Notes: a model not told the origin generated them from the letters alone. 64,000 bases of DNA from Candidatus Dormibacteria bacterium (GCA_049964715.1 JBMFXB010000002.1:12386-76385), one strand, 5' to 3'. Counted from the stretch's first letter, positions 4,378 to 39,223 are shown. Made by a program: numbers and translations.

Positions 4378-4605
4378 TCGTAATCCCTCCTCATCCCTGA
4401 TTGCCGTAATTGTATCGCATGCTTGTGTGGTCTGTGTGATGGACAGAAGGTAGTTGCCAATGTGTATCCTAATATCCGAGCCCAAAGTGAACTGTGCGAT
4501 CTTCAGCTACATGGATCCACGGTGTTGCAGATGGAACAATCGAGTGAGGAGTGCAGATTGATGATGCAATGCATGCGACGGCTGCAATCAGTACCGAAAC
4601 GGACA

Positions 4606-5124
4606 ATGATGAAAACGGTATCCGCCATCCTTGCAGGTGGTGCAACTTTACTCCTTACTGCATGCTCTCCTGGCTACTCGAATGTTCCAACAAATACAAT
4701 TCCACCGACAACACCAGCAGTGACTCCCAATGCCTGCAATCTTCTTTCAACTGACAATGTCACTGCAGCGCTTGGTACGAGTACATGGAAATCCGACTAT
4801 TCAACACCTGCATTTCAGGTGAGCCAGTCACAATCGTTCGGTGGAGCAGGAACTCCAATTGGTCAATGTAGATACAGTGTTTCCGACGGAAGGGCACTTG
4901 TCGTGACCGTTTACCCAGGAACACCACTTGCATCCCTCGGTTATGACATTGGTACTTCAGCAACATCCACATCTGCACCCGTTGTAAAGGAATCGACAAC
5001 ATCGGGAATCATTGCCTTCATGAGTGGTGAAAATGCAATAGAGATCGCCATTGACCGTGCTGACTTGAGCCCGTCATCTCGCAGTGCAGAGCTTGAGACA
5101 CTTGAGCAGCAGGTCAACAGTTAA
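4606..5124 (+). CDS. Lipoprotein (lipobox LLTAC)
   Basis: MMKTVSAILAGGATLLLTAC|SPGYS is a signal peptide plus lipobox cysteine. The mature part is Thr/Pro-rich. Start chosen at the in-frame ATG-ATG at 4606. Confidence 0.6.
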   Translation: MMKTVSAILAGGATLLLTACSPGYSNVPTNTIPPTTPAVTPNACNLLSTDNVTAALGTSTWKSDYSTPAFQVSQSQSFGGAGTPIGQCRYSVSDGRALVVTVYPGTPLASLGYDIGTSATSTSAPVVKESTTSGIIAFMSGENAIEIAIDRADLSPSSRSAELETLEQQVNS

Positions 5125-5176: not shown

Positions 5177-5761
5177 CTATCCAAAATTCCATGTAAGTGG
5201 TGGCGAAGTCATGTTTGCTGGCTGGTATGTGAGACTTACAATAACAGCGTTAGACGGCACGTAGAAGATGATGAGACCACGCTTCATGACATTCAAAGGC
5301 AAAATATTTCCCTTGTGCAGAGTGCTTGCTGTAACAAATGGACCAACGCCGTGATACGTGACAGATGGCTGGGTGGAAGCTGGAAGATACTGAATGCCAT
5401 CTGAGTCCATAAGTGATGCACCAAAGCCAGCATTGAGAGTGATGCTAGCATCTGCTCCCACAGTAAATGTGGACATACCTTTATAGGTAAATCCAAGTTC
5501 AAATGCAACAGCTCTCTCTCCCCTTGGGGCAACACTTCCTGAAACAGGATCTATCACATTGACAAGGTCAACGTTGACACGTGCAAAACTGCTGTCGCTC
5601 CCCTCTGGAATGTTGATACTGTGTTCGATGCCTGTTCCTGCATACTTCACGTACACAGGGGAAGCCTGAGGAGATTGGACTGTTCCACAGGCAGCAACAA
5701 CTGCAATGCCTATCAAAGCACACCCACTGCGCATTGACAAAAGCAACCCACGATTAAGCAT
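5177..5761 (-). CDS. Lipoprotein (lipobox VAAC)
   Basis: N-terminus MLNRGLLLSMRSGCALIGIAVVAAC|GTVQ is a signal peptide with lipobox. No other motif. Confidence 0.55.
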   Translation of the reverse strand: MLNRGLLLSMRSGCALIGIAVVAACGTVQSPQASPVYVKYAGTGIEHSINIPEGSDSSFARVNVDLVNVIDPVSGSVAPRGERAVAFELGFTYKGMSTFTVGADASITLNAGFGASLMDSDGIQYLPASTQPSVTYHGVGPFVTASTLHKGNILPLNVMKRGLIIFYVPSNAVIVSLTYQPANMTSPPLTWNFG

Positions 5762-7148
5762 GAGACTGCCCCCTACTCACTGTCCTACGCTTCATTATGA
5801 CCACTGTGATCCCAGCTGCAAGTACAACCACCACTACAATTGCTATTCCTAACCACAGTGGAAATCCTGAATTCCTAGTCGTTCCAAGATCAAGAGGGGA
5901 AAGCGTATTCCCTGTATGAAGAACAATGAAACCATTCTCAGGTGTGGTAATTCCTGCAAAGGCAACAGTACCCTGGCTTACTGGAGTTACAGCATTAATC
6001 TCACCATTCGTTTTCTTGCCATTAATGGTTATCTCAACCACAGTCCAGGATGTACCATTAAAATGCTGAATGAATGGAGTGGGTATGAGCGTCTTACCCT
6101 GCCTACCTATAGAAGTAATTCCACTCACCCACACATCGTTGCTACCAACAGCACCCACCGATGTCACTGAGAAGTTTCCTCCAGACACAGTCCTAAAGTT
6201 AGGCAGTGTAGAAAACGCTGTGCCATTCCAGTGATATATTCCCGTCTGCTGACCTAATGGTGTACTTATCTGTACTGCTATCCACAGGTTACTACCTGAA
6301 TTTCCCGATAGAAATGTTGGACTTGCAATTGCTCCGCCATTCTGTAACGGAATTGCATTGTTGGTAAAAGTGGATCCATTCCAAACCTGCATGACAGGTG
6401 ACTTGCGCACTGTGCTGCCAATCAGGAAAACAACGTTGTTGGGAGTAAAAGCCTCAACCGCCTGCAAATATGAGTTGGCCAATGGCTCCTGCAGACTTGT
6501 CCATGTAACTCCATTCCAGTGGAACATGAAGTTCGTAGGAGCTCCCTTTGTTCCACTAAAGCCAGTAGCCCAGACATCATTTGGAGCGTCCTCTGAAACA
6601 CTGTATAGCGACCCTGGTACTGTTTTGGCCACTGTAGGAAGGGTTGCAAGTTGCCATGCACTACCATTCCAGTGATCTGCAAATGCATACGAAGGCACTT
6701 CATCCGAAAACTTGTTGCCTGGCTGTGAGGAACCAACAATCCAGACATCATTTGATGCAAGTGCACTAACAGAATTTACAACAGTGCTTGTACCAGGAAA
6801 TGATGGAGATATATCATGCACACTGCCCCCAGATTCAATCTCTACAAACGGCAATATCTGGCCCCCCGCAGCATTTGGAGCATGACCTACTGCTGAACCA
6901 GCGACGACAATACCGCCACTGCCTGGAATGGATGAAATGCCTGAAATGCTTTCCGTGAATGTATATCCGGAAGGAACACTTGAAGGTCTAAGCAAGGTAT
7001 ATTCCGTCCATCCCGAGCTAGATGCAAGAACCATGCTACCCTGCAAAAACAAAGCTGCAGCGAGAACAAACCCTGCAACTAGGTCAAGGTTTCTCAATCG
7101 AGGGAAATTCATGAATCCTCCTACTCCATTGGACAAAGTACGTTGCAC
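5754..7148 (-). CDS. Surface-anchored beta-propeller-like protein with repeated WNG motifs
   Basis: N-terminal signal peptide (LVAGFVLAAALFLQG). At least five spaced repeats HWNGSAW, HWNGVTW, VWNGSTF, HWNGTAF, HFNGTSW occur, resembling BNR/Ycf48-type propeller blades. C-terminal TM anchor LWLGIAIVVVVVLAAGITVVIM followed by KRR. Overlaps the downstream lipoprotein gene by 8 nt. Confidence 0.55.
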   Translation of the reverse strand: MQRTLSNGVGGFMNFPRLRNLDLVAGFVLAAALFLQGSMVLASSSGWTEYTLLRPSSVPSGYTFTESISGISSIPGSGGIVVAGSAVGHAPNAAGGQILPFVEIESGGSVHDISPSFPGTSTVVNSVSALASNDVWIVGSSQPGNKFSDEVPSYAFADHWNGSAWQLATLPTVAKTVPGSLYSVSEDAPNDVWATGFSGTKGAPTNFMFHWNGVTWTSLQEPLANSYLQAVEAFTPNNVVFLIGSTVRKSPVMQVWNGSTFTNNAIPLQNGGAIASPTFLSGNSGSNLWIAVQISTPLGQQTGIYHWNGTAFSTLPNFRTVSGGNFSVTSVGAVGSNDVWVSGITSIGRQGKTLIPTPFIQHFNGTSWTVVEITINGKKTNGEINAVTPVSQGTVAFAGITTPENGFIVLHTGNTLSPLDLGTTRNSGFPLWLGIAIVVVVVLAAGITVVIMKRRTVSRGQSHA

Positions 7149-7235
7149 ATTTTCATGGTCATCATACTCTGGATTGTTTGTTCCTGCTGCTGTTTGGTAG
7201 TCACATCCTCAAGAAGAGTCAGACATATCTACAGG

Positions 7236-7267
7236 GAAGGAGGAAACCCCTTTGGGTTTCCTCCTTC
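7236..7267 (-). terminator. Perfect 14-bp stem hairpin immediately 3' of the Tyr/Trp-rich protein gene
   Basis: GAAGGAGGAAACCC-cttt-GGGTTTCCTCCTTC at 7236-7267, lying 29 nt after the stop at 7296. No clean U-tract on the - strand. Confidence 0.5.
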
Positions 7268-7295
7268 ATTTGAAACATTTATCTAGATCCATTAC

Positions 7296-9245
7296 CTAAC
7301 CATTACTGCCTTCGATCTGCTTCACCTGGAGTGTAATCGGGTTTACTGCATTGTAGGAGACTGCGACGGTTGTCCATGGCCAGTCATGCCATGCTCCATC
7401 TAGTTCCTGGTAAGTGACATTTTGGTAGGTATTTGTTGTGTAGTAATGAAGCTGCCAGTTCCATCCTACATATCCGTACCACCACGTATTCACATTCCAA
7501 TATCCATAGTAGTTTGTATATCCATGAGGTGTGGCAAAGATGTAGGCAGGATAGCCAGCATAACTTTCCCACCCAAGAGGGTACGCGTACCAGCAGTTGG
7601 TATTCCATGAATACCCCATATCATTGTCACCGTCAAGATCAAGGTTTGTCCATCCAGTGAAATTGCAATTGTAGATTGAACGACTGTTCCATCCAGTGGG
7701 ATATGCCTCATATGCCCAGTTGTATGAGTACCAGTAATCAGTGTATGAGCCAACTGCATAGCTTAGCCACTGAGTATAATCCGTCTTCCATGCAGGATCC
7801 TGAGACCAGCTGCTTGATGTCTGGAAAACAGGTTGGCTCAATGGATCATTGATTGTGTAGTACTGGAAGTAGGGTGGTGGAACATTGTAGTTGTACTGGC
7901 ACCCAGATGCCTGTGCACAGGTATCAACCACAGTGGTCGTTTGCACAGAGTTGTTTGGAGCAGAGTTAATCTGATAGTACTGATACGACTGCTGGTAAGG
8001 AACGTATTCCAGCACCCATTGCTGGTAGTACTGTGACGTATGGTAATAGGCTGTGTATGATGCAACATACTGCTGATCCACATAATTCGTTACTGGTGAG
8101 CTAGTTAGATATGGATACCATACCCCGCTCGGGAAAGTAGTTACTCCACCTCCATATGCCTGGTACAAAGAGGAGTAGCCAGTAGTGTAGGCATCATCAT
8201 TATCAATGCCAAGACATCCTGACCATGAGTTGTAGTCAGGCCAGACATACGTACCAGCCCATGTTTCCCAGTTCCAGCTCACGCCAACGTTGTTACAGCC
8301 ATTGAACTCATCATACGGGGAACCATAGAAACCGTCATAACCACAGCATCCTGCCCACGTACTCTGACCGGAACTCAGTGCAGGAAACCAACCAGCTGCA
8401 TAGACATTCTCTGCTGTGTATGGTTGCGAGTTGTTTGCAACATAGTACTGTGTAAACGACTGGGTCTGATCATTCGTTGCACCAGCAAGCCATGCCTGCG
8501 GATGTTGAGAAGTATAGTAGGCAGTGTACTGTGGGCAATTCACAAGGGTGCCAGCTAGAACAGATGCAGGATTGCCACAGTCATAGTGCACTGAATAAGT
8601 CTGTGCAACGTAGGTCGTATACGGTTGTCCTCCACTCCACTCCACCACCACTGCTGGCTGGTAGGTATTCGCAGTAGCATAGTCATGAATGGCATTCAGT
8701 GTGTAAACAGGCGGAGTACCGGAGTCAGTTCCAAAGGATGTGTACTCAATACACGGCTGCAGGCTGCCACTCGTTGGACTAGTAGTCGGATTGAATGGCA
8801 GATTTAGATTCTGATCAGTTGTATACTGGCAAACCTGATCAGGATTGTTGTTGCCGTAGTAGAATTCCACGATAACCTTCTGGGGAACCCATTTTATGAG
8901 AGCACTGGTGCCATTTGTTGGCGGATTGGCACCAGGATTTGTACAAGTCGTGAGCGCAATCTGGTTATTGCCATTGACTGGTGGCTCAGTGTATACACAT
9001 GCATCCACTGTAGCTGTAAAGTGCTCGGGATATCCAACGACACCTGGCGTTGGTGCAACCTGTAAGGTTGCACTGCTCGCAGGTGGACATGACTGCTGTT
9101 GACCAACCAGGTAGCAATTGAGAGTAGATACGGGGGGAGGAGAACTTGCGGCAACTGTTTGATAATTGGCAAGTGCAGTGAAAGCAAATGCTAGCAAAAC
9201 AGCAATCCACCTCATTACTAGGCGAGCAAAACTCGACTGAACCAT
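7296..9245 (-). CDS. Secreted, extremely Tyr/Trp/Asn/Thr/Gln-rich protein, about 650 aa, almost devoid of charged residues
   Basis: Signal peptide (MRWIAVLLAFAFTALA). The N-terminal third is Cys-containing (CYLVGQQQSCPP, DACVYTEPP, TTCTNPGANPP, DQVCQYTT, QPCIEY). The C-terminal 250 aa are dominated by aromatics (YGYWNVNTWWYGYVGWNWQLHYY, WYSYNWAYEAYPTGW). Immediately downstream of, and same strand as, three TadE-like genes. Confidence 0.6.
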   Translation of the reverse strand: MVQSSFARLVMRWIAVLLAFAFTALANYQTVAASSPPPVSTLNCYLVGQQQSCPPASSATLQVAPTPGVVGYPEHFTATVDACVYTEPPVNGNNQIALTTCTNPGANPPTNGTSALIKWVPQKVIVEFYYGNNNPDQVCQYTTDQNLNLPFNPTTSPTSGSLQPCIEYTSFGTDSGTPPVYTLNAIHDYATANTYQPAVVVEWSGGQPYTTYVAQTYSVHYDCGNPASVLAGTLVNCPQYTAYYTSQHPQAWLAGATNDQTQSFTQYYVANNSQPYTAENVYAAGWFPALSSGQSTWAGCCGYDGFYGSPYDEFNGCNNVGVSWNWETWAGTYVWPDYNSWSGCLGIDNDDAYTTGYSSLYQAYGGGVTTFPSGVWYPYLTSSPVTNYVDQQYVASYTAYYHTSQYYQQWVLEYVPYQQSYQYYQINSAPNNSVQTTTVVDTCAQASGCQYNYNVPPPYFQYYTINDPLSQPVFQTSSSWSQDPAWKTDYTQWLSYAVGSYTDYWYSYNWAYEAYPTGWNSRSIYNCNFTGWTNLDLDGDNDMGYSWNTNCWYAYPLGWESYAGYPAYIFATPHGYTNYYGYWNVNTWWYGYVGWNWQLHYYTTNTYQNVTYQELDGAWHDWPWTTVAVSYNAVNPITLQVKQIEGSNG

Positions 9246-9440
9246 GCAATTCCATTTAAACCATCGAGTCATCTGTACTCACCCCCACAACTAAAGGTGA
9301 ACGCCATTTCAATACCTTTCATTATCATTAACCACGTTCACAACACCATGGTGTATTTGTAACAGGATAATGACTGAAGGTTTCAATGCAGTACCTGATA
9401 CATATTCCAAACGCAGGGCAACCTTCCAACTGGAACCCAC

Positions 9441-10034
9441 TTAGCAATAGTCAATGGGGACTGCTGAGGTTGGACATACATGGCTCCTGAATGGTTCCAG
9501 TGCCTCTGCAGAAGTAGCCTGCACCGTTGCATGGTTCCATATGGGAATCCAGGGTAGTGTGACATTGGCTGTAACATCCACACCTACCACTCCGCCCCTC
9601 CAAATCCCAAAACACCCCCCATCACTTCCTGTTCCCCCATACCCATCGCTACAAACCGCTGGAATGTTGGTACATATGTTGCTACCTGCTGTAACTACGC
9701 ATTTTGACTGGGGTGAAATTGCTGAAACACAAGTTATAGTTGGTGATGGAAGAGTACTGAAAAGAGATGATTTCAAGGCTGCATCAAAGGCATTTATAGC
9801 CTGTGCATACCCGACATCGCCATTCGAACAAGAGTCATTCGCGTTGCGGGCAATTGTCAATGCTGACTCAGTCGTTGCCTGCTGCAGGAGGCTTTGCGCC
9901 TGGATATATGAATCAATTGCAATGGCACCCAAAAAAACTGTGAGCATCACTGGAAGAAGAACTGCAAATTCAACCATTGTTTGACCAACTGCATGCTTCC
10001 TTGGATGAATTCGAAAGTGATGGAGTCGTTTCAT
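9441..10034 (-). CDS. tadE: TadE-like pseudopilin (Flp pilus assembly)
   Basis: N-terminus ...HAVGQTMVEFAVLLPVMLTVFLGAI matches the TadE/TadG N-terminal motif (G/Q-x-x-VEFAL + hydrophobic helix). Confidence 0.75.
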   Translation of the reverse strand: MKRLHHFRIHPRKHAVGQTMVEFAVLLPVMLTVFLGAIAIDSYIQAQSLLQQATTESALTIARNANDSCSNGDVGYAQAINAFDAALKSSLFSTLPSPTITCVSAISPQSKCVVTAGSNICTNIPAVCSDGYGGTGSDGGCFGIWRGGVVGVDVTANVTLPWIPIWNHATVQATSAEALEPFRSHVCPTSAVPIDYC

Positions 10035-10684
10035 TGCTCAAACTCCTGGACCGTGTATGTATCTTGCGCATATACAGGAAGTTTGTTACCAAGTATCGGA
10101 GCTGGTGCAATGAGAGGTTTGTAACCGGCAATGGTGATAGTTAGCTCAACTGCGGATGTTGATGCTCCCCCATTCGTATTTGCTGTAGCACATATAAGCA
10201 AAACGTTGGATGTTGAGGAGGGTACAAGAGTATTAAGATACGACAGCATTTGCTTCTCTGTTGGAGGCGTTGTGACACTGTACCCCGATGCACTGCTTGG
10301 ACGCTCTGATGGCGGGCATGAGGCAAGTGGATCAGGAAGCTCGGAACTTGGCACGCTACCTGTACACGGTAAACCATATGTTCCACTAACTAGCGGTGTT
10401 GCACCAAGAAAGCTCTCCGAAACTGCTGCCTTGTAGGCAACCTGTCCAGCATTGCACTCAAGCCCAAGTGCATCCGTTGGCATGCCTACAACCTGTACCC
10501 CCTCCTGGGAAGCAAAATTGAGGCTGTTCAAGTCAAGTTGCCAGAGAAAAGCTACCACACCCCCAAAAATAATCACTATGAAGACAGGAAACACGAACGT
10601 AAATTCAACAAGCGATTGTGCTCGTGAGTTATGGCGATGGGAATGTCGCATTGCTGAAACAGCTCTTCCGTAATTGTTTTCCAT
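10031..10684 (-). CDS. TadE-like pseudopilin
   Basis: ...SRAQSLVEFTFVFPVFIVIIFGGVVAF is a TadE-type N-terminal motif. Start trimmed from the ORF start at 10783 to an internal Met; the exact start is uncertain. 4-nt overlap with the downstream tadE. Confidence 0.65.
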   Translation of the reverse strand: MENNYGRAVSAMRHSHRHNSRAQSLVEFTFVFPVFIVIIFGGVVAFLWQLDLNSLNFASQEGVQVVGMPTDALGLECNAGQVAYKAAVSESFLGATPLVSGTYGLPCTGSVPSSELPDPLASCPPSERPSSASGYSVTTPPTEKQMLSYLNTLVPSSTSNVLLICATANTNGGASTSAVELTITIAGYKPLIAPAPILGNKLPVYAQDTYTVQEFEQ

Positions 10685-10686
10685 GG

Positions 10687-11502
10687 TCAATTGCCCAAAC
10701 ATCCATACGCAGAATCCGTTGCCTGCATGAGAATATGCGATTCCCCTATAAATATGCCAAATGGCTGACTTGCCTGCATCCACACATTTACTGTTACCTG
10801 TCTAGCAAACTGCTGTGTAGCTGGACAGACATAAGGAGAACTTCCCGCCTCATCACCGTCCGCACCAGAAGCATCATCGGAAGTTCCGGTTGCTGAATCA
10901 TCACTATCTAGCATGTAACCTTTGCTCACAAGAACCTGAAACTCGATATTCGTCAGCGAAGAGCCTTGTTCATAATTGGAGCATTGTGTCAATGAATATG
11001 GGCTTCCCATACTTTCAGTCCCCTTACAAGGCTGACCAGAAGTGGGAGCTGCAGCTGCATCAATTGTGTACCCAGGGAACGCTTGCTGGAGCACATTGGT
11101 AACGGAACTGTCAGCAGAGTATGATGCGATTTGTTCCTCTTCGATGGTTTGAGCTCCATCTGGAGTTGTTGTTAGGATTCCTGGGGATGTCTCCATTCCC
11201 TGACTTATTGGGGGCAAGCCAGATGCATAGAGTGAAGTAGTAGACTGACCAGTTCCCGGATACGTACCGTACTGGCATTCATATTCATCATATGTGTACT
11301 GTGATGCCATGCATGCGTCTCCACTTGCAGCAACTGCAGCTACTACAGTTGCTGCATCAAGTCTGCTACGTGCATTCAGATAGATCTCACCCGACATTGT
11401 AAGACCCAGCAGGGCAATTATGACTGGCAACATGAGAGCGAAAAGTGGCATGACTTGTGCTCTGCTACCATGTCTCTTCGCAGGCATACAGTTACCTTTC
11501 AT
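10687..11502 (-). CDS. TadE/TadG-like pseudopilin (larger paralogue)
   Basis: ...GSRAQVMPLFALMLPVIIALLGLTM N-terminal motif. Start set at MKGNC, preceded by GAGGAA; the ORF extends to 11568. Confidence 0.6.
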   Translation of the reverse strand: MKGNCMPAKRHGSRAQVMPLFALMLPVIIALLGLTMSGEIYLNARSRLDAATVVAAVAASGDACMASQYTYDEYECQYGTYPGTGQSTTSLYASGLPPISQGMETSPGILTTTPDGAQTIEEEQIASYSADSSVTNVLQQAFPGYTIDAAAAPTSGQPCKGTESMGSPYSLTQCSNYEQGSSLTNIEFQVLVSKGYMLDSDDSATGTSDDASGADGDEAGSSPYVCPATQQFARQVTVNVWMQASQPFGIFIGESHILMQATDSAYGCLGN

Positions 11503-11675
11503 GTCGTTCCTCATCATGCAACGCAGTAATGAAAGGTGTCGATTATTCTTCACATCAGCTCTTCTCATCCCAATAGTCGACTACAGGTGAACTCCATCAT
11601 CATTACATGGATTTTCATTACCGATGATTGCAGGTCGGTTACAACTTTGACACATCGCTTCTCAATTTGCACTCT

Positions 11676-12542
11676 TCAAGAAGCATCTCCATCATGCTGC
11701 TTTATGTCTGTACTGTTTGGTGGAGCATATCCCTGAATGTACTGGACATTGGACGGCTCGATCACGGCAGTAGATCCTGCATATGAACCCGTCACAGAGA
11801 ACGTGATCGTTCCCAAATCACTTCCCGGAACATCAATTGACCACTGCACTATATCACCACTCGACCCCAGGTAAACATTTGCTGCGAGTTTTGAGCTGTG
11901 TGACATTGCAGTAACAACCACTTGGTCTACGAGCAATGACTCTTCACTATTGCTCTGCTGTAGTACTGATTGCAAATCAGTGGTTACCCTGTATGATTCA
12001 GCAGAACGGCCAGCGATGGTTGTGGGGCCTGTATCTTCAACTTTGACTATTCCATTGTCCACAATCTCTTCCGTGATAGCAGGATTCAGGAGAAGCAAGT
12101 CATCTGCAAATGAGCTGAGAGGCTTTGCAACTGGTGGTGCTGACTGGAGTACCAGTCCTTTCCATACCTGTGAAGATGTTCCACTTCCCACATATCCCAC
12201 ATATGCACTTCCCAACTGTTCCACAAGCGAAAAGGCTTTCGGTTGACTCGATGCAATGCCAGCATTCGTTGCAAAATTGTAGTGTCCAACCACTTCTTGA
12301 GCCATGGTGAATGGGTTTACTGCGGATTGACGATTCCATTTGCCGGTGAATGTATAACTCCCTGTTAGGAGCTTTGCATAGCCCACTGCAATTCGATTTA
12401 CATCCCCCATTTGGGCAGGGGACAGTTGTTGACCTCCAACACTTGACTGTACCCTATGAGTTGAGTTTCCAATTGCTGTTGTGCCACACGAAGTGGTTAT
12501 ACAGATTCCCAGAGCAAGGAGAATTGCAAATGAGCGATTCAC
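11676..12542 (-). CDS. Lipoprotein (lipobox ITTSC)
   Basis: MNRSFAILLALGICITTSC|GT is a signal peptide plus lipobox. No domain assigned. Confidence 0.55.
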   Translation of the reverse strand: MNRSFAILLALGICITTSCGTTAIGNSTHRVQSSVGGQQLSPAQMGDVNRIAVGYAKLLTGSYTFTGKWNRQSAVNPFTMAQEVVGHYNFATNAGIASSQPKAFSLVEQLGSAYVGYVGSGTSSQVWKGLVLQSAPPVAKPLSSFADDLLLLNPAITEEIVDNGIVKVEDTGPTTIAGRSAESYRVTTDLQSVLQQSNSEESLLVDQVVVTAMSHSSKLAANVYLGSSGDIVQWSIDVPGSDLGTITFSVTGSYAGSTAVIEPSNVQYIQGYAPPNSTDIKQHDGDAS

Positions 12543-12634
12543 CAGTCCAACTCCTTCTCATGTTCATGCAGATCCACCACATGTATAGCACTCTAGTAAT
12601 CGAACACATCGAAGGCAGCTGGACTGTCACACCT

Positions 12635-13237
12635 TTACAGTGAATTCAGTGGACTTGGAAGTGGGCCAGAAGCAAACATGAATGATGAATACACGGTAAT
12701 TGGTTGTATTGGACTGATGAAGTAGACAATATATTTCGTAGGTTGGCTTGGTGCGTTTGATGAAACATTTGAAACAGTGAAATTGCCCTGGATAATTACT
12801 ACCCAAACCTTATCTGGAAGATTTTTTTGGCCTGAAAGAAACTGGCTCAATTCACTTGTGGCAACTTCCTGTGGAGGAAGACACTGTATTTGTCCTTTCG
12901 CACTAATATTGGACTGTTGATTGAGAACCTCATGCACGAGTGACGTAGCTTCACTGGCACTCACTGGACCAGAGGGCTGTGTAAAAGGAGGAACAGTCTG
13001 TCCCGGGCTCAACGTTATTGGGGTGGGGGTTGGCCCATTGGGTTGGATCGTTGCAGCCCCACATGACGAACTGTACGAAGCGTTGACGAGGGGCCCAACA
13101 TGGGAACTCGGCTTGGGTATAGGAGCCGTAGGAGTAGGGCTTGGATGCTTGGTCGCTGAAGGGGCACATCCAACAAGGAGTGCCAAGCCCACAGCCACAG
13201 TAGATCCTGATATCCACTTTCTTAGTACAGTTCTCAT
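12635..13237 (-). CDS. Pro-rich lipoprotein (lipobox LLVGC)
   Basis: ...GSTVAVGLALLVGC|APSATKHPSPTPTAPIPKP. ORF extends to 13282; the internal Met MRTVLRKW was chosen as start. Confidence 0.5.
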   Translation of the reverse strand: MRTVLRKWISGSTVAVGLALLVGCAPSATKHPSPTPTAPIPKPSSHVGPLVNASYSSSCGAATIQPNGPTPTPITLSPGQTVPPFTQPSGPVSASEATSLVHEVLNQQSNISAKGQIQCLPPQEVATSELSQFLSGQKNLPDKVWVVIIQGNFTVSNVSSNAPSQPTKYIVYFISPIQPITVYSSFMFASGPLPSPLNSL

Positions 13238-13288
13238 GGTCACTGAATAACGATTTCCGTTGCTCATTAAGAATTTCTCCATCTCGGA

Positions 13289-14152
13289 CTAGTGAAACAG
13301 TGCCTGGAAACTTCCAGAATTCATACCCTGGTCAGGGCTGGGTGATGGTGATGTTCCAAACTTCACGTAGTTTGTATTGCTCAGGAGTACATATTCCAGA
13401 ATAGAACTCTGAGTAGAGTTGCGTGAATCCATGAGATACGACAAGAGTTCTGCCTCAGATTCAGGAACGCCTACGATGAGTTCCGTAGCAGCCCCTGCAG
13501 TTTGACCAACTGTGCCAACATTCAGGATCGTCACATTATGCGCCATGATCTCAACATTGCCTTGGCCATTGGCGTCTCCGAGAATATCTATCTGGTCACC
13601 TGGCTGAAGGAAGCCCCCTACACCTTGTGTAGCATTCATGGGTATAGCTATTGCAACGTACCCAGATGGCAGGGAGAATGCCTCTTCCCGGCAGCCTGCC
13701 TGGGTGGCAACGGTCGTGGAACTTGATGAACTCGGAGAACTCGAAGGTGAGATGGAAGTAATGAGCGTGGGCGAAGCCGTTGCCTGGGGCGTGCAGACAA
13801 CTGCGATTCCCGACGTCTTGGTTGGGCTTACAAGACTAGGTGTGATTACCTGATTGGGAACAATGCTGACTATTGCATACTGGCCAACTACTTTCGTCGG
13901 ATCAGTGAACGCACCAGCTGGAACTGCAGTGGTCGGCACCTGAGTTGCAACGACCTCTGACTGTGTTATTGCACTTCCATTGGGGATTTCAGTCGCGGCT
14001 TCAACAACAGTGACTGTCGGAACATTTGCACCACCACCACCGGCCTTCGTTAGCACGATGAGACCCACTGCTCCTGCACCTGCAACAATGAGACCAACGA
14101 CAATTGCGATGAGTTTGTTCGGGCGGCCACCTGGCCTCATATTCATTCCCAT
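13289..14152 (-). CDS. cpaB: Flp pilus assembly protein CpaB/RcpC-like (N-terminal TM + SAF domain)
   Basis: TM segment LIAIVVGLIVAGAGAVGLIVL followed by NGSAITQSEVVATQVPTTAVPAGAF, typical of CpaB. Ser-rich linker. Start among M26/M28/M30 of the ORF (which extends to 14227). Confidence 0.7.
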   Translation of the reverse strand: MGMNMRPGGRPNKLIAIVVGLIVAGAGAVGLIVLTKAGGGGANVPTVTVVEAATEIPNGSAITQSEVVATQVPTTAVPAGAFTDPTKVVGQYAIVSIVPNQVITPSLVSPTKTSGIAVVCTPQATASPTLITSISPSSSPSSSSSTTVATQAGCREEAFSLPSGYVAIAIPMNATQGVGGFLQPGDQIDILGDANGQGNVEIMAHNVTILNVGTVGQTAGAATELIVGVPESEAELLSYLMDSRNSTQSSILEYVLLSNTNYVKFGTSPSPSPDQGMNSGSFQALFH

Positions 14153-14255
14153 ATAGCTGATCCTACATCCTTTGTTTGCAGCATTGGCGGCATGTGTCGC
14201 ATGGGCATTGCATATGCGATTCGACACCTAGTGTATTGTAAATAGCAGTAATTGT

Positions 14256-14735
14256 GTGTTGAACTGTGTTACGGTTCTGTGCCAATTGGTTCTGTACGAC
14301 CAGCAACTCCTCCTCAAGACTACATCCCCGTCACAGTCAGGTGACAGATTTGCAGCAGCAGATCCTCACCAGTCCCAGTCACCATACAGTGAAGTCATCA
14401 AGGCACTGGAGCTTCGAGGGAGGAGCACAACGATGATCGTGAATCAGCATCTCAGCAGCAGGGAAATCCGGGATGCCTTCCCCAGAGGTCTTCCTGATCC
14501 AACAGTACGCGATAGCATTGCCTCAGCCATCCTGCATGACTATCACTTTGGAAGTGCACAGACCTTGGCCATGCCAGAATCCATGCGACCAGTTCTCGAG
14601 AGTGTACACAGTACTGTTGCTCCCCGGGTAAGTACGTACTACTCCAAAGTGGAGTCCGCGCTTGCAGCCCAGCTACCATCTGCAAAACAGACACAGGGTG
14701 CTCGAGTGCGGGCGAACGTCAACCTCATCGAATAG
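14256..14735 (+). CDS. Hypothetical protein
   Basis: First gene of a + strand cassette lying between two - strand Tad gene groups (cpaB ends at 14152; flp starts at 17406). No motif; start uncertain. Confidence 0.35.
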   Translation: MLNCVTVLCQLVLYDQQLLLKTTSPSQSGDRFAAADPHQSQSPYSEVIKALELRGRSTTMIVNQHLSSREIRDAFPRGLPDPTVRDSIASAILHDYHFGSAQTLAMPESMRPVLESVHSTVAPRVSTYYSKVESALAAQLPSAKQTQGARVRANVNLIE

Positions 14736-14774
14736 TGCATCGCCATCTCGAACGTATGTGTCACTTTCGGTAGC

Positions 14775-15665
14775 ATGAAGGATGTGGCAGTACCAACATA
14801 CCCTTCACTGAAATCTCAGGAAGAGCCAATGACTTCATGTATGGATCTTCATCCTCTTGAAAGATGGTACTCAGAACATGGAAGACATCACCTCCCCTGG
14901 CGTCACACACAGGATCCATGGCACATTCTTGTAAGTGAAGTAATGTTGCATCAAACCCAGGTGCATCGAGTTCTTGGCTACTGGGAGCTGTTTATCTCAC
15001 GCTGGCCGACCCCACAGGCATTTGCAGATGCACCACTACATGACCTCCTGCGTTCCTGGAAGGGACTTGGATATCCCCGTCGTGCCCGCAATCTCCAGGC
15101 ATCAGCATCAACCATAGCCCGTACTGGCTGGCCCGAAGATGAAAAGGGACTCCTTGCACTTCCAGGTGTTGGAACGTATACAGCCCGAGCGATGCGCATC
15201 ATTGCCTGGAACGATCCAGCTTGCCCTCTTCCCCGTGATGTCAACATCACCCGCATATTCCAGCGACTCTCTGGTACCACTTCGCTTGTAGAGCCTGTCG
15301 GATGGCAGGGCACCCGGAGAGATCTTGTGTATGCTCTCTTCGATCTTGGTTCACTCATCTGCCGTGCACGGACACCTTTGTGCCAACATTGCCCTGTCCA
15401 TGAATCGTGTGTCGCATGCACTTCAGAAGATAACTTTCAGGACCCTCCAACACATCGGCAAGCACCGTTTCATGGCTCCTTCCGTGAGCTCCGCAGTGCA
15501 GTTCTACAAATTTGCATTGCAGAACCTTCCATCTCGAAGGACACTCTCAAGTACCTGTGTAGTCCACTTCTTGGTAGAGTTCCAGAACAGGATGAGCTGG
15601 ATCGTGCCCTGCACTCACTTGTAACAGATGGGCTCCTGGACATGATGGAAGAAGAGGCCACTTAA
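14775..15665 (+). CDS. HhH-GPD DNA glycosylase, MutY/Nth family, with [4Fe-4S] loop and no NUDIX domain
   Basis: Helix-hairpin-helix LPGVGTYTARAMRIIAWN, catalytic-Asp region PRDVNITRIFQRL, and cluster ligands C-x6-C-x2-C-x5-C (CRARTPLCQHCPVHESC). At 296 aa it is too short for the MutY C-terminal NUDIX-like domain. Confidence 0.7.
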   Translation: MKDVAVPTYPSLKSQEEPMTSCMDLHPLERWYSEHGRHHLPWRHTQDPWHILVSEVMLHQTQVHRVLGYWELFISRWPTPQAFADAPLHDLLRSWKGLGYPRRARNLQASASTIARTGWPEDEKGLLALPGVGTYTARAMRIIAWNDPACPLPRDVNITRIFQRLSGTTSLVEPVGWQGTRRDLVYALFDLGSLICRARTPLCQHCPVHESCVACTSEDNFQDPPTHRQAPFHGSFRELRSAVLQICIAEPSISKDTLKYLCSPLLGRVPEQDELDRALHSLVTDGLLDMMEEEAT

Positions 15666-15667
15666 CA

Positions 15668-16726
15668 ATGAGATCCGAACTCAGTACAACACTCCTACGT
15701 GATGGCCAGGGCATCAGCCTTCAACCGACGCTCACTTTGGATCCAACTCGTATCGACCACCCAGAGCCGCTTGCCAATGCTCATCGCGTCGTTTTTGCTG
15801 GATTTGCCTCTTCGTACAGTATCCTCTTCCTTCTCGAACTCCTTGCAAGTCCCGAATTCACTGTTGCCGGTATCCTCACCAGTCATCGAAGTGGCAACAT
15901 CATTGCCAACAATCGAACCTTGGCTGATATAGCCACCCAATTCAAGATACCGTTCATTGGTGCAACTGACATCAATGCCCCGGAGATAGCTTCAGAAGTG
16001 CATGGATGGAATCCCGATGTTGGTATCATCGCGAGCTTTGACCAGATCTTCCGTTCCCAGTTCCTCTCAATCCCGGTTCATGGGTGGGTCAATGTCCACC
16101 CTTCACTTCTCCCAAAGTATCGCGGGGCTGAGCCTCTTTTCTGGACTCTTGTGAACGGAGAACTCACTGCCGGTATGTCATTTCACCGTGCAGTGGAGAG
16201 ATTCGATGAAGGTGCACTACTTGCTCAGTGCATCATTCCTGTCGAAAAGGATGATACTGCTGGACGGCTTCTAGAGCGGATCATGACAGCAGCACTTCCC
16301 CTCATTCCAGCAGTTCTCTCCCACTGCATACATGGCGGAACAAGCACTCCCCAGCCACAAGGCACGTTCAGTACAGCTCCCCCCATAGGACACTTCCCTC
16401 TTGCTGCCTGTGCGAGTGCGAGTCATGCAAAAAGGATTGCATTTGCAACACTTCCGGACTTTGCTCCATGGATCGAGCTCACAGGAACCCGATTCTTTAT
16501 CCGCTCGATTTCGGATGCACCCCTTCTCAATACCCTTTCGTATACCTATCCTGATGGAACCCAGCTATGGTTTCCTGAACTCACGGAACAATGTAGTTGT
16601 ATCCAACAGCGTCCAGATTGCCCAGCTATTCGTGATACGCTTCCCACGTCACGCTCGATACCTTTTATAGTAGGTAGCAGCGAATACATATCCACACTGC
16701 AGAGCAGTGCAACGAGGAATTCATGA
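15668..16726 (+). CDS. Formyltransferase-family protein (Fmt-like, with N- and C-terminal extensions)
   Basis: HPSLLPKYRGAEPLFWTLVNGELTAGMSFH matches the HxSLLPxxRG catalytic motif of Fmt/PurN formyltransferases. Begins 3 nt after the glycosylase stop, so probably cotranscribed. Confidence 0.65.
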   Translation: MRSELSTTLLRDGQGISLQPTLTLDPTRIDHPEPLANAHRVVFAGFASSYSILFLLELLASPEFTVAGILTSHRSGNIIANNRTLADIATQFKIPFIGATDINAPEIASEVHGWNPDVGIIASFDQIFRSQFLSIPVHGWVNVHPSLLPKYRGAEPLFWTLVNGELTAGMSFHRAVERFDEGALLAQCIIPVEKDDTAGRLLERIMTAALPLIPAVLSHCIHGGTSTPQPQGTFSTAPPIGHFPLAACASASHAKRIAFATLPDFAPWIELTGTRFFIRSISDAPLLNTLSYTYPDGTQLWFPELTEQCSCIQQRPDCPAIRDTLPTSRSIPFIVGSSEYISTLQSSATRNS

Positions 16727-17157
16727 ACGACAGGAAGTCACTCAGCGACCAGACTGATCCTTTGCACACCTATGTGGATGAGGAGAAATTCTTTACACTC
16801 ACTGCTCCTGAACACTCTGGTTCAACAAAAACACTCTGCCTGTTTCTCCTCAGCGAGGAAGTCAATGAGCAGGCACGAGAGGGACATTTTTCTCTCATCT
16901 CTGGCTATACACGTGAAAATGAACCAAAGTGCATAACCAGTGATGCACTGGCTGTCCTCCTCATTGATGGTGGTGTAGAGGGTGCTGAACGTTTGTGCGG
17001 AAGAATTCTGCAGCTTTTTGCTTCCCTTCACCTTGAACACATTCTCACGATCCTTGTGGTGTCCCTTCCTGAAGCACTTACTCCTGAGCATGCAGCCAAG
17101 CTCGTAGCAGAAGGACGAACACGTGAAGCTGGCTCTGTCCATCTCATTGCATCGTAG
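16723..17157 (+). CDS. Hypothetical protein (possible degenerate receiver-like fold)
   Basis: Overlaps the formyltransferase stop by 4 nt. The segment ITSDALAVLLIDGGVEG is reminiscent of receiver domains but lacks clear signature residues. Confidence 0.35.
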   Translation: MNDRKSLSDQTDPLHTYVDEEKFFTLTAPEHSGSTKTLCLFLLSEEVNEQAREGHFSLISGYTRENEPKCITSDALAVLLIDGGVEGAERLCGRILQLFASLHLEHILTILVVSLPEALTPEHAAKLVAEGRTREAGSVHLIAS

Positions 17158-17241: not shown

Positions 17242-17406
17242 TTATCCTGTCGCGTATTTCACTCCTTTCTCAATATTGGAATACACATTGTTGACCTGAT
17301 GACCAAGAAGAATCACTGTCACAAGTACTGCCAGTGCAATGAGTACGATTATGAATGCATATTCGACAATACCCTGACCTTTCTCCTCCTGACATCCCAG
17401 TCGCAT
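17242..17406 (-). CDS. flp: Flp/Fap family pilin (prepilin, 54 aa)
   Basis: MRLGCQEEKGQGIVEYAFIIVLIALAVLVTVILLG... carries the Flp motif G|xxxxEY followed by a hydrophobic helix. GGAGGT lies 3 nt upstream of the internal ATG; the ORF extends to 17457. Confidence 0.8.
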   Translation of the reverse strand: MRLGCQEEKGQGIVEYAFIIVLIALAVLVTVILLGHQVNNVYSNIEKGVKYATG

Positions 17407-17547
17407 CCTACCTCCATATAAAAGCAGGACTGGAAGAGATCGTAGCCACGTTGCCACTATAGGCTTCCTCCTTTATATCTGACGTTCTCGCACACCTGAT
17501 AATTCTGTGGGGAATTATAGCACCCTGTCAAATTTACATACTTTGCG

Positions 17548-18477
17548 TCATCCACCTGTCATAATCTTGACGATTGCAGGTCCGAGAAGCACAAGGAAAA
17601 CACAAGGAAAGATACAGAGGAGCATTGGCAGAAGCATGAGGACTGGTGCTCGATGTCCTGCCTCTTCTGCCCTCTGCTTCCGGATACGTCGAAGTTCTTC
17701 GGATTGGACACGAAGGACATTCGCAACACTCACACCTAGTGGCTCTGCCTGCACAACAGCACGAATAAAGTTGTCAAGCTCCTCTACCGGATTTCTCTCA
17801 GCCATTGCTGAGAGAGCTTCAAGACGTGGTCTTCCAAGTCGAATCTCATCTAGCGTTTTCTTGAACTCCCTCCCAAGAGGACTCTGCTCAGACTCTGCGA
17901 CGCGGGACAATGCCATGTCCATGCTGAGACCAGCCTCCATACTGATGGTAAGGAGATCCATGACTCCTGGCAGTGCCCGGGAAATGAGTTTCTGCCGCTT
18001 CTTGATCTTGCTCTTGAGGGAAGAGACTGGCAGACTCCTTCCAAAGAACACACCTCCTGCAACTGCTGCAAGAGTGATTGGAAGGCCAAAGTCGAAGTAA
18101 TTTCCCAGAAACAGTGCTGCGAGCACAAAGACGATTGGGAGCAGGATTTGCTGTCCAAGAAGCATCTGTGGTGATTTCCCCTCAACATCAGCCTGTACAA
18201 TGAGCCGCTGAAGCTTTTCAATCTGACCAGCCTTGGAACTCCGCATCATGATATTGCCTATGCGATTAAAGAGTGGAGTGATCACACGATCAGTAAAGGG
18301 AAGTGCCATCTCTTCCTCGCCAGGAAGTGCAATATTTGATCCACCCATTGCCTCATCGACACCGTAGAGTCGCTGCTCAAGTCGATCCTTGCTAGTCGAT
18401 GGAGAGGCTATTACCAACACAAGGACAAACACACCAACTACAACAGCAATGCCCTCAATGATCGTGATCGGTGTCAT
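17548..18477 (-). CDS. tadC: Flp pilus assembly inner-membrane platform protein TadC (T2SS-F domain)
   Basis: 309 aa with TM segments flanking a cytoplasmic T2SSF-like domain (LISRALPGVMDLLTISMEAGLSMDMALSRVAE..LGRPRLEAL). GGAGGTG lies 8 nt upstream of the ATG. Confidence 0.75.
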   Translation of the reverse strand: MTPITIIEGIAVVVGVFVLVLVIASPSTSKDRLEQRLYGVDEAMGGSNIALPGEEEMALPFTDRVITPLFNRIGNIMMRSSKAGQIEKLQRLIVQADVEGKSPQMLLGQQILLPIVFVLAALFLGNYFDFGLPITLAAVAGGVFFGRSLPVSSLKSKIKKRQKLISRALPGVMDLLTISMEAGLSMDMALSRVAESEQSPLGREFKKTLDEIRLGRPRLEALSAMAERNPVEELDNFIRAVVQAEPLGVSVANVLRVQSEELRRIRKQRAEEAGHRAPVLMLLPMLLCIFPCVFLVLLGPAIVKIMTGG

Positions 18478-18482
18478 TGTCT

Positions 18483-19469
18483 CTACACCTCCACATTCAC
18501 GATTTTTCTGATGATGGCATACCCGCCAGCAATCATGAAGAATGCAAAGCCGAGCATGATCTGACCTGGGAGTTTTGTCAGCATTGGATCAAAGTAACTT
18601 GGTGCAATCATGTAAAGGATGCCACTCAGTGCAAGGGGAAGCACTATGAGTACCCAACCAGATGCACGTGCCTGGCCAGTTATCGTCTTGATCTCACCTT
18701 TGATTCGTACACGTTCACGTATCGTGTACTCAATATTGTCGAGAATGACGGCCAGGTTACCCCCTACCTGCTGCTGTATCTGGATTGCAGTCATGAGAAG
18801 CTTCAGGTCCTCTGATTCACTTCTGTCGACCATATGGCCAAACGCTTCAATAAAGGGGACTCCCAACTGGGTTTCCCTCATGACACGTGCCATATCAGGA
18901 CCCATTGGTGGTGCTGCATTCTGGGAAACAAGATTCATTGCTTGTGCAAGGGTGTAACCGGCCTTCACACCATTGCTCAATGCAAGAACTGTCGGACCAA
19001 GCTGATCCTCAAACTTCTTTCGTCTTTTGTTGTACCGCATCTTCAAATAGATACGCGAGCCGAAAAAAACAACTGCAAACCCAATGATGAGCCCGATAAT
19101 GCTCTTAAAGCGCAACATGAGAAGGAGACCCAGCACTATACTCGCAGCTGAAACCATTGCTGTCCACTCAGTGGGATGAAGCTTGAGATCAGCCTTCTGA
19201 AGCTGCTCAACGAGCTTTGCACCCCGGGATGACTTCTCGAACCGTTTTCCCACACTCTGCTGCAATGAATCTCGAAAGTCAAATGAACTCTTCTTGGTAC
19301 CCTGAAGTGCAAGAGGGGTATCACCATACTCGTCCTCCCATTCACTTTCAGCCGATGTTGCAAGTGAAGGGTCTTCGACTGGAGTACTCTTGGCTCCAGT
19401 GAGCATGAACACACCACCAAACACTCCCAGAACAACGAGTGCACCAGCAATCAGAGAGACGAGGCTCAC
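18483..19469 (-). CDS. tadB: Flp pilus assembly platform protein TadB (T2SS-F domain)
   Basis: 328 aa with T2SSF domain (LALSNGVKAGYTLAQAMNLVSQ...ETQLGVPFIEAFGHMV) and N- and C-terminal TM helices. GTG start preceded by GGAAGGGTGAAG. Confidence 0.75.
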   Translation of the reverse strand: MSLVSLIAGALVVLGVFGGVFMLTGAKSTPVEDPSLATSAESEWEDEYGDTPLALQGTKKSSFDFRDSLQQSVGKRFEKSSRGAKLVEQLQKADLKLHPTEWTAMVSAASIVLGLLLMLRFKSIIGLIIGFAVVFFGSRIYLKMRYNKRRKKFEDQLGPTVLALSNGVKAGYTLAQAMNLVSQNAAPPMGPDMARVMRETQLGVPFIEAFGHMVDRSESEDLKLLMTAIQIQQQVGGNLAVILDNIEYTIRERVRIKGEIKTITGQARASGWVLIVLPLALSGILYMIAPSYFDPMLTKLPGQIMLGFAFFMIAGGYAIIRKIVNVEV

Positions 19470-19484
19470 GATACTTCACCCTTC

Positions 19485-20297
19485 CTACTGGACATAGTTA
19501 TTGAGATTAGATGGACCAACTGTTGCTGCACCTGTAAGTTGACCGTTCTGGTACAGCGAACCATTTGCAATGACAAAGCTCAGTATTGCTGATGGATCTG
19601 TAGCCTGCAGATACTCAAATGCTGCAGCCTGTCCTGGAGACATTTCCACAATGATCACTGACGGGGTAGTCACAACTGGAGCAGCAGCAGTGGTCGAGGC
19701 TGTACCAGTTTTTGCTGCAGGTACTGCAGCTGCTGCAGCAAGGGTTTCATCAAGACTTCCCACCTTGAGTACCTTGATATCCTGGAAACCAAATGAAACA
19801 GGTGTTCCCTTGCCTCCAGCTTGAGTGAGAATATTGATGTAGTCACCCGGCTGGATGTAATAGCCAAGTCCGAGTGTCTTGCTTGTGGAAATCGCAACAG
19901 CAACATTACCAGGATCTGGAAACACACTGTCCGCTGCAGAAGGTACACCTGTAGCATTCGAAGTCACAAATGTCGATTGAAGAATTGTTCCTTGGGCAAT
20001 CTGGATTGCAGAGAATTTTCCAACAACACTCGCAGCTGTTGAAAATACTGTGCCCTGGGGAAGGACAGACTGTGGCACCTTCTTGACAGCCACCATGCTT
20101 GCTGAGAGTGACGTTCCCTGCGGAATGCTTGTGGTCGCCACGACGACGCTCACAGTTGGTCCCTGCACGGAACCTGTGGACGTGGCAGCAGCTTTCGGAG
20201 CATGTCCTTGAGACAATGCAAGTGCAAATCCACCTGCTGCCACAACTGCGGCAATGATTGCAATGAGAATCCTTCTGCTCTGTCCACCTTGATTCAC
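19485..20297 (-). CDS. CpaB/RcpC-like protein (second paralogue)
   Basis: TM segment ILIAIIAAVVAAGGFALAL followed by a SAF-like region (SIPQGTSLSASMVAVKKVPQSVLPQGTV). GTG start with AAGGAG 6 nt upstream. Confidence 0.65.
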   Translation of the reverse strand: MNQGGQSRRILIAIIAAVVAAGGFALALSQGHAPKAAATSTGSVQGPTVSVVVATTSIPQGTSLSASMVAVKKVPQSVLPQGTVFSTAASVVGKFSAIQIAQGTILQSTFVTSNATGVPSAADSVFPDPGNVAVAISTSKTLGLGYYIQPGDYINILTQAGGKGTPVSFGFQDIKVLKVGSLDETLAAAAAVPAAKTGTASTTAAAPVVTTPSVIIVEMSPGQAAAFEYLQATDPSAILSFVIANGSLYQNGQLTGAATVGPSNLNNYVQ

Positions 20298-39047: not shown

Positions 39048-39223
39048 TTTTTTGACTCCTCTGCTGCTGTGCACTCCTCCACCCGTTAGGGCTTGGTGCA
39101 AGTATACGAGGTGACTTTTCACGACAGGTCTTCCTGTCACCCCATTGTTACCATTTCGCCGACAGCCATGATAACGATGTTTCAGTTCGCAATGTCACTC
39201 CCCATACCCTTCCCGAAGGTACT

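Follow-up and report, generated by a model that had tools for sequence, protein, structure and literature searches.

How does a Tad (Flp) pilus obtain its accessory parts when the genes for them stand apart from those for the pilin and its platform? The question is raised by a stretch of 64,000 nucleotides (the window) from Candidatus Dormibacteria bacterium (GCA_049964715.1, JBMFXB010000002.1:12386-76385). A first-pass annotation had described the genes at 9441-14152 as a second, separated part of a Tad locus, composed of three tandem TadE-like pseudopilins, two lipoproteins and cpaB. Our analysis indicates that this block is probably an accessory operon that provides the tip and the alignment parts of a Tad (Flp) pilus whose genes are scattered. 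The relation to Tad and the physical separation were borne out, but the composition of the pseudopilin trio had to be revised in part. All six genes are genuine minus-strand open reading frames (ORFs) at the coordinates listed below, where a seventh, downstream gene is added. CpaB1 is 100 % identical to the NCBI entry 'Flp pilus assembly protein CpaB [Candidatus Dormibacteria bacterium]', and LipoB is the NCBI entry 'hypothetical protein ACP5OR_00930' of the same Candidatus Dormibacteria metagenome-assembled genome (MAG). In order of transcription, with a slash at the predicted prepilin cleavage site, the genes are:

13289-14152, minus strand: cpaB1, first gene of the predicted operon
12635-13237, minus strand: lipoA, directly after cpaB1, lipobox LLVGC
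11676-12542, minus strand: lipoB, encoding a probable lipoprotein, ITTSC
10687-11568, minus strand: gene of the TadG-like minor pilin, 293 aa, without Glu at +5 (Glu5), 8 Cys
10031-10684, minus strand: tadE-1, TadE-like minor pilin 1, R-A/Q-S-L-V-E-F
9441-10034, minus strand: tadE-2, TadE-like minor pilin 2, V-G/Q-T-M-V-E-F, 8 Cys
7296-9272, minus strand: gene of a secreted protein of 658 aa, probably the last of the operon

The three pseudopilin genes had all been credited with a VEFAL motif. TadE-1 and TadE-2 do carry VEF; they score 26.4 and 36.8 bits against Pfam TadE (PF07811; gathering threshold 22.9 bits). The protein encoded at 10687-11568 scores 17.9 bits, below the threshold, and its N-terminus, RAQVMPLFALMLPV, has Leu at +5 instead of Glu; its leader reads R-A/Q-V-M-P-L-F-A-L-M-L-P-V, without a VEF motif. 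Its true start probably lies at 11517-11502. We also scanned the six-frame translation of the window for the Flp/TadE processing motif ([GAS]Qxx[VIL]E[FYL], then one small and one aliphatic residue). The motif occurred five times, against 0.04 times in shuffled sequences, and the occurrences were Flp, TadE-1, TadE-2 and two TadE proteins near 57 kb; the 293-aa protein was not among them.

Despite the sub-threshold Pfam score, the 293-aa protein is homologous to the other two, since hhalign paired the N-terminal 87 columns of its family with the TadE-1/2 family at 96.9 % (E 1.3e-10). When 1.84 billion representatives were searched exhaustively with HMMER, only 22 relatives were obtained; these share the leader R-(G or A)-Q-V-M-x-L-F-A-L-M-L-P-V and four conserved Cys; some contain Gly-rich insertions of ~300 residues. 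Single members of the family gave weak matches to TadE in 12 of 21 cases (E <= 0.05, best 0.0024) and to PF13400 in 5 of 21 (E <= 0.05, best 0.00033), and the protein of the window itself did not match PF13400. Its sequence had no meaningful match among the chains of the Protein Data Bank (PDB). An AlphaFold2 (AF2) monomer model (predicted local distance difference test, pLDDT, 66) showed a long N-terminal helix (residues 40-84), a second helix and a beta-sheet, and a Foldseek search of the PDB with this model returned nothing at E <= 0.001. By its sequence features the protein is a divergent, Glu5-less TadG-like minor pilin and not a third TadE.

By definition, class III prepilins combine a basic leader with Gly at -1, Glu at +5 and ~20 hydrophobic residues in a row. 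The leader of TadE-2 (G/QTMVEF) matches this definition in full. TadE-1 (A/QSLVEF) has Ala at -1, as does the TadG-like protein (A/QVMPLF); most members of the TadG-like family have Gly at this position, and none has Glu at +5. The three minor pilins carry 4-8 Cys. Their genes are tightly packed: tadE-1 starts 2 nt after the stop of the TadG-like gene, a start set by the orthologues and by the junction itself, and the start of tadE-2 overlaps the stop of tadE-1 by 4 nt.

Comparison with related loci indicates that the three genes are conserved as a unit. They also follow one another as TadG-like, TadE-1, TadE-2, separated by at most 2 nt or overlapping, in loci L001, L005, L018 (GenBank assembly GCA_027451645.1), L020 and L006, and a contig of only 1.4 kb (L019) retains at least the first junction, with a TadG-like gene followed by a TadE-1-like gene. 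In L020 the trio (orthologue scores 4e-40 for TadE-1 and 2e-35 for TadE-2) stands beside groEL, with no cpaB or lipoprotein genes. In the distant Dormibacterota MAG L006 it lies on the opposite strand, diverging from cpaB, near a TadA-like ATPase gene. In this synteny comparison, the trio, the cpaB1-lipoA pair and the split between the blocks all recur in related loci.

Sequence identity between the window and L001 was 86-92 % for the core Tad genes, 78 % for CpaB1, 72-75 % for the minor pilins, 61 % for LipoA, 57 % for the 658-aa protein and 29 % for LipoB. The weaker conservation of the accessory genes compared with the core genes is as expected for exposed components. The ratio of nonsynonymous to synonymous substitution rates (dN/dS) was 0.03-0.14 throughout, with dS saturated, which shows purifying selection and argues that the genes are not pseudogenes; moreover, all ORFs are intact in three lineages.

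CpaB1 is a bona fide CpaB, as had been claimed. It scored 78.3 bits against the TIGR03177 equivalog (cut-off 71), and its SAF (39.3 bits) and RcpC (38.9 bits) domains were both above the Pfam cut-offs. It is a bitopic CpaB/RcpC paralogue, with an N-terminal transmembrane (TM) helix followed by the SAF and RcpC domains. The second cpaB gene, at 19485-20297, is likewise real: the SAF (38.1 bits) and RcpC (34.7 bits) domains of CpaB2 both pass Pfam, and its TIGR03177 score of 65.4 bits is below the cut-off of 71. The two proteins are ~30 % identical. Between SAF and RcpC, CpaB1 carries a Ser/Thr/Pro-rich insertion (aa ~120-154) bracketed by two conserved Cys. In the alignment this insertion was present in the cpaB1 type (window, L001, L021) and absent from CpaB2 and from more distant CpaB homologues. 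CpaB1 is 76-78 % identical to its orthologues in L001 and L005 and 48 % to that in L021, with a dN/dS of 0.07 relative to L001. The genomic contexts of the orthologues differ as well, with the cpaB2 type accompanied by tadB-tadC and the cpaB1 type by lipoA. Homologue searches yielded five proteins for CpaB1, two for LipoA and two for LipoB, and metagenome scans with the TadG-like family and the CpaB1 type returned nothing or a single 1-kb contig.

Of the two lipobox lipoproteins that had been annotated, LipoA, a predicted lipoprotein, has a canonical lipobox (LVGC matches [LVI][ASTVI][GAS]C), followed by a Pro-rich linker and a C-terminal domain of ~110 aa. The lipobox of LipoB is non-canonical: TTSC does not fit the same pattern at position -3. 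The Cys is conserved, however, and a 50 %-identical orthologue has SIAAC; LipoB is a probable lipoprotein. LipoA had no match in Pfam, NCBIfam or PDB chains. LipoB had no convincing match in these databases, its sole family match being a weak hit to an NCBIfam SCO4651-lipoprotein model (E 0.0085), and an AF2 model built from two sequences was unusable (pLDDT 33).

In L001 and L005, as well as in L021 (hmmsearch 1.3e-19), the gene next after the cpaB1 orthologue is an orthologue of lipoA. In L021 the trio is not adjacent to the cpaB1-lipoA pair. Since the pairing persists in L021, where CpaB1 is only 48 % identical, LipoA is the best candidate for a partner of CpaB1 on the basis of gene order. 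LipoB, in turn, diverges very fast. Relative to L018 it shows 49 % identity, compared to 81-86 % for the neighbouring genes, and a dN of 0.47, compared to 0.09-0.16. Nevertheless, its C-terminal HDGDAS is invariant in three orthologues that are otherwise 28-50 % identical; this tail could serve sorting, metal binding or interaction in a surface protein under diversifying pressure.

The seventh gene, which is syntenic in L001, L005 and L018, encodes a 658-aa protein with a Sec signal peptide, 17 Cys and an unusual composition (Tyr 11.6 %, Thr 10.5 %, Asn 8.1 %, Lys plus Arg 1.4 %). It had no match in Pfam or PDB. Homology to a Tyr-rich protein encoded upstream of cpaB1 in L021 was considered and rejected, as no hidden Markov model (HMM) hit was obtained. 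The two proteins share a DxDxDNDMG motif and their Tyr/Thr-rich composition, an observation that is suggestive at most.

The first-pass annotation had further proposed a single transcript running from near 14227 to about 7296, and the sequence fits this proposal. From cpaB1 to the 658-aa gene, the successive junctions measure +51 or +6, +92, +107, +2, -4 and +168 nt; alternative starts are a GTG at 14227 for cpaB1 and, for lipoA, the longest ORF from 13282. The spacer between tadE-2 and the 658-aa gene contains no significant hairpin (z -0.2 in the window, +1.1 in L001), whereas a strong hairpin follows the stop of the 658-aa gene. Two candidate transcription signals flank the predicted operon:

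14235-14262, minus strand: promoter-like site (TCAACA-16-TACAAT), a consensus match only, in the 103 bp that separate cpaB1 from the divergent gene upstream
7236-7267, minus strand: G+C-rich hairpin of 14 bp, 31 nt past the stop of the 658-aa gene

The 84-nt stretch that holds the hairpin (7215-7298) folds at -32.5 kcal/mol (z -4.0). Counterparts occur at the same position in L018, near-identical in sequence (~5882-5913, z -4.2), and in L001, with a different stem sequence (~16861-16899, z -3.7). A U-tract is absent in the window, L018 and L001 alike. The hairpin is a probable operon terminator, and the conservation of its position across lineages supports this assignment and hence an operon from cpaB1 to the 658-aa gene. 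We infer that the block is probably transcribed as one seven-gene operon, from ~14152 to 7296, in the order cpaB1-lipoA-lipoB-tadG-like-tadE1-tadE2-658aa. Consensus scans of the region for promoters and terminators remained at chance level; as the number of promoter-like sites equals the chance expectation, the site at 14235-14262 is weak evidence. A further fold, in the lipoA-lipoB spacer (12540-12637, z -4.4), would bury the Shine-Dalgarno sequence and start codon of lipoB. As L001 and L018 do not show it, a conserved role in regulation is improbable, and we rejected it as a regulatory element.

The block is separated from the flp-tadC-tadB genes by a plus-strand cassette, as had been noted, and the same split is kept in its nearest relatives, L001 and L005. 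The region upstream of the block comprises:

14256-17157, plus strand: cassette of an unknown gene, an HhH-GPD glycosylase gene, a gene of a formyltransferase-domain protein and another unknown gene
17242-20297, minus strand: core block cpaB2-tadB-tadC-flp, compact, its genes spaced by 15, 5 and 90 nt
19485-20297, minus strand: cpaB2, core block
18483-19469, minus strand: tadB, core block
17548-18477, minus strand: tadC, core block
17242-17457, minus strand: flp, core block, leader G/QGIVEY

The core block contains no minor pilin genes, and the accessory block contains neither platform nor pilin genes. A search for the motor covered the 64-kb window and ORFs of at least 150 aa. None of these ORFs contained a Walker A motif ([GA]x4GK[ST]), including the T2SSE type and the TadZ-type KGGxGKS, which implies that TadA/CpaF and TadZ/CpaE are not encoded in the 64 kb. 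Nor did the window contain an unannotated polytopic candidate for the prepilin peptidase TadV. A complete Tad system in the MacSyFinder sense comprises TadA, TadB, TadC, Flp and TadZ, while the peptidase may lie apart (PMC6668835); within the 64 kb, only TadB, TadC and Flp were found.

This organisation is shared by related loci. In L007, L008, L010, L012, L015 and L022, cpaB is directly followed by tadB-tadC. In loci of the L015 type, flp lies 3 kb further, followed by three TadZ-like genes, of which at least two are fused to receiver domains. A TadA-type Walker A motif is present in L006. Scattered Tad loci have been called 'very rare' (Denise et al. 2019, PMC6668835), but this lineage seems to have them as a rule. 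Like other scattered Tad and Kil systems (PMC6668835; Seef et al. 2021, PMC8460266), the present one has its genes distributed over several loci. It differs in that cpaB abuts tadB, without tadZ-tadA in between, which is the rule in the related loci sampled, and in that its host belongs to an uncultured, presumably monoderm lineage of Terrabacteria.

Dormibacterota are a sister lineage of Chloroflexota within Terrabacteria (PMC10608941; PMC12102498), and from this placement we assumed a single-membrane (monoderm) envelope. The absence of a secretin gene from the Tad blocks of the window is consistent with this assumption. So is a WXG100 (ESAT-6-like) protein encoded at 38760-39140 (minus strand; Pfam 78.8 bits), since proteins of this family serve as markers of type VII secretion among monoderms. 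Furthermore, a secreted protein of 360 aa with a long Pro/Thr-rich linker is encoded at 54563-55645 (minus strand). It ends in VPATG, a hydrophobic stretch and the basic tail RLKDRKKTV; this end looks like a sortase-type cell-wall sorting signal, which would fit a monoderm envelope.

If the block is indeed an accessory Tad operon, it would supply the extracytoplasmic accessory parts of a pilus whose tadB, tadC, flp and other cpaB lie 3 kb away. In known systems, CpaB makes up the alignment subcomplex, and CpaJ/K/L, like TadE/F/G and KilL/M/N, are proposed to act as a complex that primes assembly and is located at the tip (PMC13170226, PMC12075869). TadE/F/G-like trimers act as interchangeable, disulfide-rich tips (PMC12075869), in which the large subunit contributes backbone and apex, and paralogous tip clusters may be scattered in the genome (PMC12075869, PMC13170226). 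By analogy, the three minor pilins of the block would be cleaved after the Gly or Ala preceding Gln by a prepilin peptidase encoded elsewhere. Their N-terminal helices may then bundle on the TadB/TadC platform and prime Flp polymerisation, so that the complex would end as the pilus tip. The large TadG-like subunit would form the apex, and it is proposed to need no Glu5 because nothing lies above it. CpaB1, anchored by its single TM helix, would act alone or with CpaB2 in a ring-like alignment subcomplex around the platform, with the membrane-tethered LipoA as its lineage-specific partner. The Tyr- and Cys-rich secreted 658-aa protein would be expressed along with these parts and might function together with the tip or at the cell surface.

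The trio resembles TadE/F/G of Aggregatibacter, CpaJ/K/L of Caulobacter and KilL/M/N of Myxococcus in being encoded by three adjacent genes, two small and one large; in the class-III-type leader, the hydrophobic alpha1 helix and the richness in Cys; and in that a genome can encode more than one trio, at a distance from the core genes. In contrast to these systems, the gene of the large subunit comes first here and the trimer is predicted by analogy. In addition, the large subunit has neither the vWA domain found in CpaL nor a match to a KilN-type domain, and two of the three pilins have Ala at -1. Tip subunits of other type IV filaments can lack Glu5 as well: GspK, the largest minor pseudopilin of the type II secretion pseudopilus, does not have the otherwise conserved Glu at +5, in keeping with a place at the top of the filament. 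The likeness to the TadG-like subunit consists of the missing Glu5 and the size alone; no sequence or structural similarity was detected.

CpaB1 shares with the CpaB/RcpC alignment subcomplex (TIGR03177; PMC13170226) the TM helix, the SAF and RcpC domains and its place as first gene of a Tad operon. Here, however, there is no secretin, CpaD or CpaI partner to bridge to, two ~30 % identical paralogues each head an operon of their own, and CpaB1 has a Cys-bracketed insertion and is followed by lineage-specific lipoproteins.

Several observations weigh against assigning the block to the nearby pilus. Homology to a pilus component was not detected for LipoA, LipoB or the 658-aa protein. The trio of L020, with neither cpaB nor lipoprotein genes, implies that the link of cpaB1 and the lipoproteins with the trio is not universal. 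Two of the three minor pilins have Ala instead of Gly at -1, and promoter-like sites near cpaB1 are as numerous as expected by chance. Moreover, as TadA, TadZ and TadV are not encoded in the 64 kb, both a working machine and the assignment of the block to the core block are putative.

The window also contains a second set of minor pilin genes:

55881-58203, plus strand: second minor-pilin trio (TadG-like, TadE, TadE)

Its large member (55881-57167, 428 aa) exceeds the cut-offs of PF13400 (24.6 against 22.3) and DUF7305 (32 against 27), and its leader, G/QSMVVF, again lacks Glu5. The two TadE genes (57152-57655 and 57652-58203) overlap by 4 nt and their products score 40.9 and 32.7 against TadE. 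This trio lies 42 kb from the block, among housekeeping genes, and outside the N-terminus the two trios have no detectable similarity. Hence, the block is one of at least two minor-pilin modules.

The presence of two trios allows other readings. They may be interchangeable tips of one pilus, with cpaB1, the lipoproteins and the 658-aa protein specific to one tip, an idea that is compatible with an accessory operon and that we regard as a tentative possibility. Both trios have the same architecture, a Glu5-less large pilin followed by two pilins with Glu5, and a precedent exists in Myxococcus, where KilLMN tips are encoded by four clusters at scattered sites in the genome (PMC12075869). Yet neither cpaB nor lipoprotein genes stand next to the second trio, and two trios could equally serve two different filaments. 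Alternatively, the two cpaB genes would mark two systems, and the block would serve a second, separate Tad machine with ATPase, platform and pilin genes elsewhere, such that its closeness to cpaB2-tadB-tadC-flp would be incidental. The duplicated modules fit this idea, as does the cpaB of L006, which is closer to cpaB1 (5e-18) than to cpaB2 (8e-12) and stands beside a TadG-like/TadE/TadE set and a TadA-like ATPase gene. Orthologues of the cpaB2 type (L015, L010, L012, L007), in turn, accompany TadZ-like genes and tadB-tadC-flp, and no minor pilin is encoded less than 10 kb away. We nevertheless consider a second machine unlikely. The blocks of the window complement each other, a single flp and a single tadB/tadC pair being present, and are neighbours in every relative whose contig spans both (window, L001, L005); a second platform, pilin or ATPase was not seen in the 64 kb. 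Furthermore, the affinities of distant homologues to cpaB1 and cpaB2 are ambiguous, as in L009, whose cpaB scores 6e-13 against cpaB1 and 1e-12 against cpaB2.

Decay of the locus is a different matter. The absence of tadA, tadZ and tadV from the window and the interruption of the locus by unrelated housekeeping genes could point to a remnant from which the ATPase was lost and which has ceased to make a pilus. We consider this most improbable: the ORFs are intact in three lineages with dN/dS values of 0.03-0.14, cpaB-tadB-tadC without tadA is the normal arrangement in the lineage (L007, L008, L010, L012, L015, L022), and L006 demonstrates a TadA-like ATPase in the phylum.

An accessory operon of the neighbouring Tad system thus remains the reading that we prefer, and it invites a more speculative extension. 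In type IVa pili, PilN, PilO and PilP combine bitopic paralogous membrane proteins with an inner-membrane lipoprotein. CpaB has been likened to this alignment complex (PMC13170226). On that model, CpaB1, CpaB2, LipoA and perhaps LipoB might constitute a hetero-oligomeric alignment or cell-wall-spanning module that replaces secretin, CpaD and CpaI of the diderm machines and is expressed along with one of two exchangeable tips and a dedicated, secreted Tyr-rich adhesin. We hold this to be quite unlikely; it is an analogy only, and no homology between LipoA and PilP was found. If true, modularity would extend to the envelope conduit as well as to the tip of a single pilus.

Two further genes lie downstream of the 658-aa gene:

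5754-7148, minus strand: gene of a 464-aa protein
5177-5761, minus strand: gene of a 194-aa protein

The 464-aa protein has a signal peptide, a C-terminal TM anchor and four WNG[STV]x[WF] motifs, with a fifth (FNGTSW) recognised by eye. The motifs are spaced ~50 residues apart with N-D-V-W in between, which suggests a beta-propeller. A similar repeat protein is encoded after lipoA in L021. Beside this gene are two lipobox lipoprotein ORFs, at 5177-5761 (minus strand, VAAC) and 4423-5124 (plus strand, LTAC).

Overall, the locus is a recognisable variation on a known machine rather than a new kind of system, and its description is a sound annotation, not a discovery; the organisation is noteworthy but would not greatly surprise a Tad specialist. 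Tad pili are well studied in Proteobacteria and in few Actinobacteria, whereas almost nothing is known of them in Dormibacterota, an uncultured soil phylum. The Dormibacterota machine described here is scattered, with no ATPase gene beside the platform genes and with two CpaB paralogues. Its minor-pilin trios, at least two in number, fit the recent idea of exchangeable pilus tips, and its lineage-specific lipoproteins stand where the secretin module is encoded in diderms. If the proposed partners are confirmed, the locus would shed light on the passage of a Tad machine through an envelope with a single membrane and on the diversification of pilus tips outside predatory bacteria.

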